IMG/VR virus record: IMGVR_UViG_3300045012_000053
Span: 37,361-101,360 of that record
DNA length: 64,000 bases
Source: a virus
Strand: one strand, 5' to 3'
In this document: piece after piece, positions 2,176-42,037 of the stretch
How positions within the stretch are numbered: the stretch's first letter is position 1
How the letters are laid out: each line of letters begins with the position of its first letter
Translations under genes and position numbers: made by a program
Notes under the pieces: generated by a model
Seen by the model: only the letters and a program-made list of their open reading frames with translations
The model's database searches: none
Told to the model about the DNA's origin: nothing

Positions 2176-2314
2176 TGGACTGGTGACGCAGAAGAACTCT
2201 TCGCCATCAGGAACCCGAAGAGCGGAACCCGGGAATCATACCGGGATGGTTGAGTGCCATCTTCCTAAGCCCCCACTCAGGGGTGTAGAAGAGCATGCGT
2301 CATCAGTGGTTCCA
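2176..2314 (+). ncRNA. Candidate structured ncRNA (closing stem plus four hairpins plus kissing loop)
   Basis: 2179-2190 pairs with 2296-2307 (12 bp); internal stems 2197-2222, 2228-2245, 2245-2261 and 2269-2284; loop TGAGTG is complementary to loop CACTCA. Confidence 0.55.
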
Positions 2315-2337: not shown

Positions 2338-2385
2338 GGGCGTGCCACTAACACGCCCTCCTACTCTTTAGTGGAGAGTATCATG
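2338..2385 (+). promoter_or_regulatory. Twin-hairpin kissing-loop leader occluding the SD of an EndoVII gene (copy 1)
   Basis: GGGCGTG-CCACTAA-CACGCCC then TACTCT-TTAGTGG-AGAGTA; the loops are exact reverse complements; ATG at 2383. Confidence 0.65.
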
Positions 2386-2742
2386 ACTTTAAGTTTACGT
2401 GAGCGCAATAATCTTGCGGCTCAAAAGTATCGGAAAAATCATCCCGAGAGAAGGCGTTTTATTCAAGCGCCCAAACGTGGAACAACCAAAGCACAAGCTG
2501 ACGCCAAACTTTTGGAGCAAGAGAATAAGTGTGCGATTTGTGAAGAAATTTTTATAAAGACGCCCCACATTGACCACGACCACGTAACAAATCAATTTAG
2601 AGGGCTACTGTGTAGAGCCTGCAATCACATGCTAGGCAATGCACGAGATAGCATCACTGTTTTACAAAGTGCAGTTGTGTATTTGAAAAAGTATGGAGCC
2701 TACAATGGTAAAGAAGCACCCATTCAGCCACACGGTGGTTGA
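2383..2742 (+). CDS. Endonuclease VII-family HNH (homing) endonuclease
   Basis: QENKCAIC...HIDHDH...RGLLCRACNHMLG; AT-rich relative to flanks. Confidence 0.9.
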   Translation: MTLSLRERNNLAAQKYRKNHPERRRFIQAPKRGTTKAQADAKLLEQENKCAICEEIFIKTPHIDHDHVTNQFRGLLCRACNHMLGNARDSITVLQSAVVYLKKYGAYNGKEAPIQPHGG

Positions 2743-10900: not shown

Positions 10901-11926
10901 ATGAGCGGACCAAATCCCTCAGCATCAAACGTAGCAAACGTCCTGACAGCACAGGCAATCATTTTCGACAAGGAACTGATTCCGAACTTGAAGGGCAACA
11001 CCAACGCATTCGTTGGCGCGGCAGAACGTCGTGTTCAGGGCCTTCACATGGGCGTGAACCGTACGTTCTTCCAGTACAACACACTTTCGGGTGACGTTGT
11101 GCAGAACTCCGATGGTACCGTGGGCAACCCGGAAACCATCACTCAGTTGTCGTCTCCGGCACAGATCGGAGAATGGAACAACTACAGCAACTTCTCATCG
11201 TTCGCTATCGCAGCGGCGATTGACGAGCTTGTTGGCAACAGCGCAGTCGAACTTGGCTACCAAGCCGGGCAGTCGATCAGCGAGTTGTACAGCGCAGTTG
11301 CAGACAGCGCATCTGGTGTGGACGCAAACGTCAACCAGTCGTCGTTGCTTGCATCTCCGTACACCATTGACTTGGGCACCATCCGTGAATTGAAGCAGCA
11401 GCTTGTTTCAAAGAACGTATTGCCTTGCAAGCGTGGCATGTTCTTGGGCGCAATCAGCCCGAACGTGTTGGGTGACATCTACAACGCAACGACAGTGAAC
11501 AACTCTATCGTTGACTTGTGGAAGTACGAAAACATGGAGAAGTTTGATGCAATGGCAGGCAGCGACCAGAACAAGGTCATTGTCCTACCGGGCACCAACA
11601 TCGGCTTCATGCAGACCCCGTTCGTAACCACAACGGCCAACTACAACGGCTCGGGTAAGATCGGATACCGCACATATGTTTTTGGCAATTATGCCATGAT
11701 CGGTGTCTGGCTTCAAGTGCCGGGAGACACTGATCTTGATGAAGGCGATTGGAAGACCATCGATTGCCGCGTCGTGACAGATGCCCCTGCATCCAGCTTT
11801 GACCCTGTCTCAACAATTGGTGGGTGGTGCAGCTATAAGTTCCACCAGACAGTTACGTTGCCACCAGCAACTGGCGCGAATACCCAGCGTATTCGCTACA
11901 TTGACTCGGTTCCGGCAATTCAGTAA
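10901..11926 (+). CDS. Major capsid protein (N4-gp56-like)
   Basis: 341 aa; position; ELGYQAGQS..., DPVSTIGGWCSYKF pattern; strongly biased codons. Confidence 0.8.
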   Translation: MSGPNPSASNVANVLTAQAIIFDKELIPNLKGNTNAFVGAAERRVQGLHMGVNRTFFQYNTLSGDVVQNSDGTVGNPETITQLSSPAQIGEWNNYSNFSSFAIAAAIDELVGNSAVELGYQAGQSISELYSAVADSASGVDANVNQSSLLASPYTIDLGTIRELKQQLVSKNVLPCKRGMFLGAISPNVLGDIYNATTVNNSIVDLWKYENMEKFDAMAGSDQNKVIVLPGTNIGFMQTPFVTTTANYNGSGKIGYRTYVFGNYAMIGVWLQVPGDTDLDEGDWKTIDCRVVTDAPASSFDPVSTIGGWCSYKFHQTVTLPPATGANTQRIRYIDSVPAIQ

Positions 11927-11935
11927 ATATTCCTC

Positions 11936-11964
11936 TTGACACAGGTTGCAACTTGTGTTAAGAT
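11936..11964 (+). promoter_or_regulatory. sigma70-type promoter for the EndoVII gene
   Basis: TTGACA-N17-TAAGAT with extended -10 TG; spacer is an imperfect palindrome. Confidence 0.7.
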
Positions 11965-11967
11965 GCA

Positions 11968-12028
11968 GATTGGGGGTGTGTGCCCAAACACACGCCCCTA
12001 ATCAACTCTTTTGGGAGAGTATAAAGTG
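11968..12028 (+). promoter_or_regulatory. Twin-hairpin kissing-loop leader occluding the SD of an EndoVII gene (copy 2)
   Basis: 15-bp stem with loop CCCAAA (11983-11988), then ACTCT-TTTGGG-AGAGT; loops complementary; GTG at 12026. Confidence 0.65.
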
Positions 12029-12391
12029 AAAACATCGACTTTGAAAGTTCGTCAATGGCGTGAGAAAAATACAGAACGTAATCGAAACAATGGCCGTCGC
12101 TGGTTTGAGAAAAACAGGCAATATGATAGGCTACGTCGACACAGTCTCACACAAGAACAATACGACGCAAAGATGCAAGAGCAAGATAGTCGTTGCGCTG
12201 TCTGCTATAAAGAATTCACAGGAACGCCGCACGTTGACCATAATCACAGATGCTGCCCAATACGAAGAAGTTGTGTCAAATGCCGACGCGGCCTTCTCTG
12301 TGAAGATTGTAATCTAGGCCTCGGCAGATTCAAAGACTCAATAGAAGTTCTCAGCAACGCAATCGAATATCTCAAAGGATACAAACAATGA
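12026..12391 (+). CDS. Endonuclease VII-family HNH (homing) endonuclease
   Basis: QDSRCAVC...HVDHNH...RGLLCEDCNLGLG. Confidence 0.9.
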   Translation: MKTSTLKVRQWREKNTERNRNNGRRWFEKNRQYDRLRRHSLTQEQYDAKMQEQDSRCAVCYKEFTGTPHVDHNHRCCPIRRSCVKCRRGLLCEDCNLGLGRFKDSIEVLSNAIEYLKGYKQ

Positions 12392-41627: not shown

Positions 41628-42037
41628 CCGCCGATTCGTAACTTTTTAGCGGGCGGTGAATTTAAATAAGATTGAAACGGAATGCACAATTTCAAAACTT
41701 TTGGACGTCTTTCCAATGCTCCAAGAATTCGATTACATAACGTGCACAAGAGACCTCGAACTCTTTTTAATCCTCCGTGTTCGTGGTCTATATTTAAGGT
41801 CTTCCAGCGCCCTTCTTTACTTGTCTTTGACCCGCAAATGGCGCAACGACCTTTTTGAAATCGAAACAAAGACCGAACTTGTTCCGACGTTAAGCCGTAT
41901 TGAGACATCCACATATACGCTCTCTTGATGCTTTTTCCTTTCTTTCGATACCAAGCGCGTATCTGAGCGTTGATTCTATTTCGGTTTTTATTTCTGTAAA
42001 TCGCCATCCTTTCAAGTTTGTTTAATTTTGCCATCAT
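41606..42037 (-). CDS. Endonuclease VII-family HNH endonuclease
   Basis: YGLT...QKGRCAIC...IDHEH...VRGLLCTLCN; AT-rich. Confidence 0.9.
   Translation of the reverse strand: MMAKLNKLERMAIYRNKNRNRINAQIRAWYRKKGKSIKRAYMWMSQYGLTSEQVRSLFRFQKGRCAICGSKTSKEGRWKTLNIDHEHGGLKRVRGLLCTLCNRILGALERRPKVLKLCIPFQSYLNSPPAKKLRIGGWYRREK

Follow-up and report, generated by a model that had tools for sequence, protein, structure and literature searches.

Two leader RNAs in the analysed stretch

The window analysed here is a 64,000-nucleotide stretch, bases 37361-101360 of a complete 101,360-bp uncultured virus record with direct terminal repeats (IMGVR_UViG_3300045012_000053). Within it, two genes for nucleases of Pfam family Endonuclease_7 (EndoVII, HNH-type) are each preceded on the + strand by two adjacent hairpins. 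The relevant features, in window coordinates, are as follows.

2338-2358 (+), copy 1 hairpin A: stem 2338-2344/2352-2358 (7 bp, GGGCGTG/CACGCCC), loop CCACTAA at 2345-2351
2362-2380 (+), copy 1 hairpin B: stem 2362-2367/2375-2380 (6 bp, TACTCT/AGAGTA), loop TTAGTGG at 2368-2374; the Shine-Dalgarno (SD) sequence GGAGAG at 2373-2378 spans the loop/stem boundary
2383-2742 (+), copy 1 gene: 119-aa Endonuclease_7 nuclease, ATG start (PF02945, E = 8.8e-19)
10901-11926 (+), backbone gene just upstream of copy 2: major head protein
11936-11964 (+), copy 2 promoter-like sequence: TTGACA-N17-TAAGAT with TG extended −10 (10 of 12 matches in a promoter scan); its spacer is a covarying palindrome (CACAGGTTGCAACTTGTG)
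11968-12003 (+), copy 2 hairpin A: 15-bp stem 11968-11982/11989-12003 with one G-U (lower part GATT/AATC), loop CCCAAA at 11983-11988
12005-12020 (+), copy 2 hairpin B: stem 12005-12009/12016-12020, loop TTTGGG at 12010-12015, SD GGGAGAG at 12013-12019
12026-12391 (+), copy 2 gene: 121-aa Endonuclease_7 nuclease, GTG start (PF02945, E = 6.9e-19); its end overlaps the start of the next backbone gene at 12388

In copy 1 the hairpins are separated by the linker TCC, and TC follows hairpin B before the ATG; in copy 2 the linker is a single A. At both sites the loops of hairpins A and B are exact reverse complements, and RNAfold predicts both hairpins (z = −3.9 and −4.6). The two nucleases are only 40% identical to each other. 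Copy 1 lies just before the terminase and portal genes. The observation made in a preliminary description, namely two hairpins with perfectly complementary loops in front of each of two EndoVII genes, with hairpin B burying the SD, is therefore confirmed.

A scan of the whole 101-kb genome for two adjacent hairpins with complementary 6-7-nt loops found exactly three sites on the + strand, against 0.15 per shuffled genome. The third site (CCTATA/TATAGG) lies about 1 kb before the window, inside the tRNA cluster of the phage (genome 36209-36804, L045:410-1005; L and G numbers are our labels for the retrieved sequences). There are tRNA genes at L045:410-482 and 933-1005, and the 3′ end of the nuclease ORF (560-994) runs into the next tRNA gene. 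This copy 3 gene encodes an HNH endonuclease of another family, PHROG 2255, with no Endonuclease_7 hit.

The non-coding stretch between a 90-aa ORF (1895-2167) and copy 1, at window 2176-2314, also looks structured. A long closing helix is visible by eye, and the descriptor scan found a pair of hairpins with complementary 5-nt loops, TGAGT/ACTCA (L001:1265-1305, about window 2243-2283). This stretch gave no Rfam or tRNA hit.

The loop-loop complementarity is conserved by compensatory change

A megablast search of 12 kb of the window against cultured phages returned nothing. Upstream regions of the closer protein homologues all showed the same architecture with different, exactly complementary loops. 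MAFFT placed the leaders out of register, and we therefore used a gapless 3-sequence seed and alignments guided by covariance models (CMs). The preliminary description had proposed that loss of loop complementarity in homologues would count against it, and this was examined with CMs in which only the two stems are paired (R1 and R2), so that the models carry no information about loop-loop complementarity. Copy 1 itself scores 57.3 bits with R2. On 80 contigs retrieved through the conserved gene upstream of copy 2, R2 gave 45 distinct hits at E < 1e-3. Of these, 37 have exactly complementary loops, 6 have loop A fully paired inside a loop B that is 1-2 nt larger, and the remaining 2 each differ by one substitution that makes a G-U wobble. 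A DNA pattern fixing only conserved stem and SD bases, with both central loop triplets left free, returned 40 distinct sites from all viral contigs. All 40 have complementary triplets, 13 different ones, where chance predicts about 0.6.

A search of 26 large related virus records found leaders in 21, including all 10 that are at least 90% complete, with up to 6 per genome. Of these 63 hits, 59 have exact complements (49 with 7 of 7 and 10 with 6 of 6 bases) and 1 has a G-U. One has a real mismatch (L324, G010:2898-2948), in a cassette whose start codon is also lost (ATG to ATA), one is disrupted and one is a plain terminator. L324 is the only leader with a true loop mismatch. Other cassettes are also decaying (L021:1462-1647, L156:657-785, L215:3532-3645, L201:3600-3656): several keep an intact leader in front of a truncated nuclease ORF (38-62 aa), and L201 keeps the complementary loop sequences but has lost stem B. 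In total, over 100 distinct leaders were recovered from related phage contigs, nearly all with exactly complementary loops and with more than 45 different loop sequences; the few exceptions are G-U wobbles or decaying cassettes.

In a clean alignment of 53 distinct sequences, 98% of cells are paired over 18 pairs. The loop-loop helix is 96% paired, 5 of its 7 pairs change on both sides, and its three central pairs each show four pair types; stems A and B covary too. For the whole structure 0 of 500 shuffles reach the observed values, and sliding the partner columns drops pairing to about 50%. The few unpaired cells come from rows whose longer stem or loop is out of register in the alignment. 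G-U pairs are tolerated in all three helices on the + strand only and A-C is rare, which identifies the + strand RNA as the pairing species.

Weak CM hits (L015:3194, L016:3342, L058, L326, L150, L183 and L193:5941) are plain terminators or terminator-plus-RBS sites without loop complementarity, and served as negative controls. We also considered mimicry of an anticodon loop (CC-NNN-AA) but rejected it, since the central triplets are unconstrained, with 13 or more different ones, and simply mirror loop B. Loops within one genome are all different (0 identical in 103 pairs against 1.7 expected), but not significantly more so than by chance (P = 0.15).

The leader belongs to homing-endonuclease cassettes

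The preliminary description inferred that the element travels with the EndoVII family. This does not hold. Three of the five Endonuclease_7-type genes in this genome lack it (window 41678-41911 on the − strand; genome 18042-18248 and 5450-5635, − strand, outside the window). It is likewise absent, by CM and by a sequence-independent descriptor scan, from 97 more distant loci, comprising 80 with relatives of the copy 3 HNH protein and 17 distant EndoVII loci. Within this phage lineage, however, it precedes nucleases of several families, and every leader examined precedes a homing-endonuclease-type gene. Of 52 downstream proteins, 31 are Endonuclease_7 and 12 are GIY-YIG (10 of them with NUMOD3), a fold unrelated to the HNH fold. 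Eight of the other nine match HNH or endonuclease PHROGs, and one (L172) matches nothing.

Relatives whose head-protein gene is 96-99% identical but which lack a cassette have, at the same place, a terminator hairpin (stem GGGGAGG/CCTCCCC, loop TCGATG, plus a T-run) followed by the next backbone gene. Promoter, leader and nuclease gene thus form a presence/absence insertion that replaces a terminator, as expected for free-standing homing endonucleases. The upstream gene was identified by a tblastn match to the annotated major head protein of Tunturiibacter phage Tunturi_3, the nearest cultured relative (36% identity), which has no significant leader hit.

Anatomy of the leader and its promoter

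Across about 85-97 distinct leaders, the module is about 45-55 nt long. A long, G+C-rich hairpin A, which has a covarying lower extension (GATT/AATC, GGTT/AACT, GACTGG/CTGGTC, AATCA/AGATT and others), has a median of 13 bp and −19 kcal/mol. It is joined by a linker with a median of 1 nt to a short, weak hairpin B with a median of 5 bp and −3.5 kcal/mol, and the loop duplex is estimated at −7.3 kcal/mol. Loop A almost always starts 5′-CC and loop B ends GG-3′, which are the first SD bases. The SD, (A)GGAGAG, is thus split, with (A)GG in loop B and AGAG in stem B.

The 8 nt after stem A hold 4.0 U on average against a background of 1.9, at least as U-rich as the backbone terminators that the cassette replaces, and hairpin A of copy 2 was flagged as terminator-like in the scan. 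The run is, however, interrupted by C and is weak in copy 1 (3 U in the first 8 nt).

About 32 of 53 distinct leaders have a strong σ70-type promoter sequence with an extended −10 directly upstream, ending 6-13 nt before the upper stem, so the expected start falls at or inside the lower stem. About 40% of leaders, including copy 1, have no recognisable promoter there. The promoter spacer (window 11942-11958, and the same position in about 25 loci) is a palindrome kept with different sequences (GGTTGCAACC-type, GGACGGCCATCC-type and CAGCCTCATGAACTGTGG-type), and leaders without a clear −35 element have a G+C-rich hairpin at the same place. It could be an operator, a third RNA hairpin on read-through transcripts, or a leftover of the upstream terminator. 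By eye, and without a late-promoter consensus for this phage, no conserved promoter-like sequence was evident between hairpins A and B.

Possible mechanisms of control

The analysis establishes the three helices as evolutionary constraints, their covariation, the split SD and the association with nuclease cassettes. Translational repression, the steric exclusion of pairing in cis, termination at hairpin A and pairing between molecules are all inferred from sequence. The interpretation offered in the preliminary description is partly supported: kissing loops kept by compensatory change, burial of part of the SD by hairpin B and the precedent of single RBS-sequestering hairpins in T4-type homing endonucleases hold, but neither the link to the EndoVII family nor a simple kissing fold within one molecule does.

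Since the element covers the ribosome-binding site, its likely function is to hold down translation of a potentially harmful nuclease. The whole site would be double-stranded only when stem B and the loop-loop helix exist together. In kissing complexes with fully paired 6-7-nt loops, such as TAR-TAR* and ColE1, the two stems stack on either end of the loop-loop helix. Here this would put the bases of stems A and B some 50-70 Å apart, yet they are joined by 0-2 nt, and intramolecular kissing with both stems intact is sterically implausible, so that the pairing would be either intermolecular or alternate with hairpin B. Covariation cannot tell cis from trans pairing, and only this steric argument bears directly on pairing between two molecules, but since the SD would be fully double-stranded only when stem B and the loop-loop helix coexist, we tentatively favour pairing between molecules, in which loop A of one leader would kiss loop B of another mRNA. 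The donor could be a full-length mRNA or a short RNA ended at the U-rich run after hairpin A, including upstream transcripts that end there, and the more leader RNA is made, the less nuclease each mRNA would yield. Such kissing is physically plausible, since 6-7 complementary nucleotides is the usual size for antisense loops and 5′-CCNY/RNGG-3′ loops in particular kiss between molecules with low-nanomolar KD (PMC4872101), although the loop-loop helices here have only 2-4 G-C pairs, fewer than the strongest selected kissers. In its furthest form, which is possible but less than even in likelihood, the leader would be a self-titrating regulator of a kind not described before. A strong promoter would mostly make a short, stable hairpin-A RNA, or full mRNAs carrying it, whose loop kisses the SD hairpin loop of sister transcripts from the same cassette. 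This would be an antisense-like regulator encoded in tandem on the same strand as its target, capping nuclease output regardless of gene dose, with each cassette having its own loop address.

The main rival, which we consider somewhat less likely, is a two-state switch within one molecule. On transcripts reading through from upstream genes, the full 12-15-bp stem A and hairpin B would form and the loops would stay apart. On transcripts from the cassette's own promoter, starting at or inside the base of stem A, the freed 3′ strand of the lower stem would become a linker, loop A would pair with the loop-B sequence as stem 2 of an H-type pseudoknot, and hairpin B would melt. The two transcript classes would then be translated differently, a variant of the T4 logic, where endonuclease genes do discriminate between transcripts by their 5′ ends (PMC2988022). 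With a crude pseudoknot penalty, the pseudoknot is +6.4 kcal/mol relative to the two-hairpin fold for full leaders but only +1.1 kcal/mol (median) for those starting at the upper stem, where it is the more stable in 40%. Loop 3 would be 5-15 nt (median 10), enough to cross a 7-8-bp stem, but only if the lower stem A and hairpin B are melted. Loops 1 and 2 would be 0 nt because all 6-7 loop bases pair, which is unusual for cis pseudoknots and typical of kissing complexes. Moreover, neither state frees the SD, since the pseudoknot pairs (A)GG and hairpin B pairs AGAG, and there is no obvious ON state; the lack of a recognisable promoter in about 40% of leaders also weighs against it.

It is unlikely that hairpin A is mainly a terminator, an mRNA 3′/5′ end protector or an RNase III-type processing site brought in to replace the backbone terminator, with hairpin B the usual pairing of a terminator U-run with the next RBS and the loops serving RNA processing or stability. 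The terminator at empty sites, the U-rich tail and ordinary terminator-plus-RBS arrangements of similar shape elsewhere in these phages (L015:3194, L016:3342, L326) are consistent with this view. However, those ordinary sites lack loop complementarity, so complementarity is specific to nuclease cassettes, and the paired loop-B bases include the first SD bases in nearly every member, which points to the ribosome-binding site as the target. An element acting as DNA, such as a cruciform or a site for a protein, for example the nuclease itself, is very unlikely. Both hairpins and the loop pair are inverted repeats in DNA as well, and EndoVII-type enzymes act on branched DNA, but the tolerated G-U pairs would be A-C mismatches on the other strand or in DNA. 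The element also always lies on the sense strand immediately 5′ of the start codon and contains the SD, and loop sequences differ completely between cassettes encoding similar proteins.

Comparison with known systems

The closest described system is the RBS-sequestering hairpin of T-even phage homing-endonuclease genes (I-TevI, I-TevII, I-TevIII, segB, Aeh1 mobE; PMC2988022). As there, an RNA structure directly upstream of a homing-endonuclease gene contains the SD, a dedicated promoter lies close by, and the presumed purpose is to limit nuclease translation. The T4 cases, however, use one very stable hairpin with a late promoter inside it, whose transcripts cannot form it. Here the SD hairpin is weak, a second long hairpin supplies a covarying loop-loop helix, and the promoter-like elements lie upstream of both hairpins and are of the host σ70 type.

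In antisense control by kissing loops (ColE1 RNA I/RNA II, R1 CopA/CopT; kissing repertoire in PMC4872101), stable stems likewise present fully complementary 6-7-nt loops, one of them in a hairpin at a translation or priming control site, and the 5′-CC.../...GG-3′ loop ends match the strongest selected kissing motif. Those partners are transcribed from opposite strands and are complementary along their whole length, whereas here both loops lie in tandem on the + strand, 20-30 nt apart, and only the loops are complementary. The phi29 pRNA and bicoid mRNA 3′UTR (cited in PMC4872101) also have two complementary loops in one RNA. In these RNAs the loops are held where they cannot meet within the molecule, so that pairing occurs between copies, but they serve packaging-motor assembly or mRNA localisation rather than control of a ribosome-binding site; multimerisation of the present leader is inferred only. 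In cobalamin riboswitches (PMC6158498, PMC9600662) an intramolecular loop-loop helix involves the hairpin that holds the RBS and represses translation, but it is stabilised by a ligand bound to a large aptamer with long connectors. Here the leader is only two helices with almost no unpaired conserved nucleotide that could bind a ligand, and Rfam 15 gave no match at gathering score in the window and none at E ≤ 1 on four leader loci. Literature searches for kissing or loop-loop leaders of homing endonucleases found no description among open-access papers.

Homing endonucleases are selfish genes that have to stay nearly harmless to the phage that carries them, and single RBS hairpins in T-even phages are so far the only described RNA solution. 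The leader of this lineage of ~100-kb soil phages is a different and very compact design, shared by nucleases of unrelated folds, very strongly supported by natural compensatory variation and small enough to dissect completely in vitro. If the loops pair between molecules, it would be a simple dose-limiting circuit that needs no protein. It would also supply a natural library of dozens of mutually distinct 6-7-nt kissing pairs for RNA engineering. It further marks homing-endonuclease cassettes and their boundaries in uncultured phage genomes.

Further observations in related genomes

In many relatives (L161:2501-3754, L217:2501-3937, L189:2501-3738 and about 20 further loci) the match to the gene for the 341-aa major head protein spans 200-400 nt more than the gene's 1023 nt. 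No Rfam family, for example a group I intron, reaches the gathering score in three of them, and the extra length suggests an insertion inside the capsid gene. A search of bacterial and archaeal genomes for a clue to the host gave one chance match and one contig filed under an ‘uncultured archaeon’ genome bin (L333, CABMCB010000038.1, 36.7 kb). The latter carries a typical bacterial σ70-type promoter, leader and HNH cassette of this phage lineage, and is probably a mis-binned phage contig.
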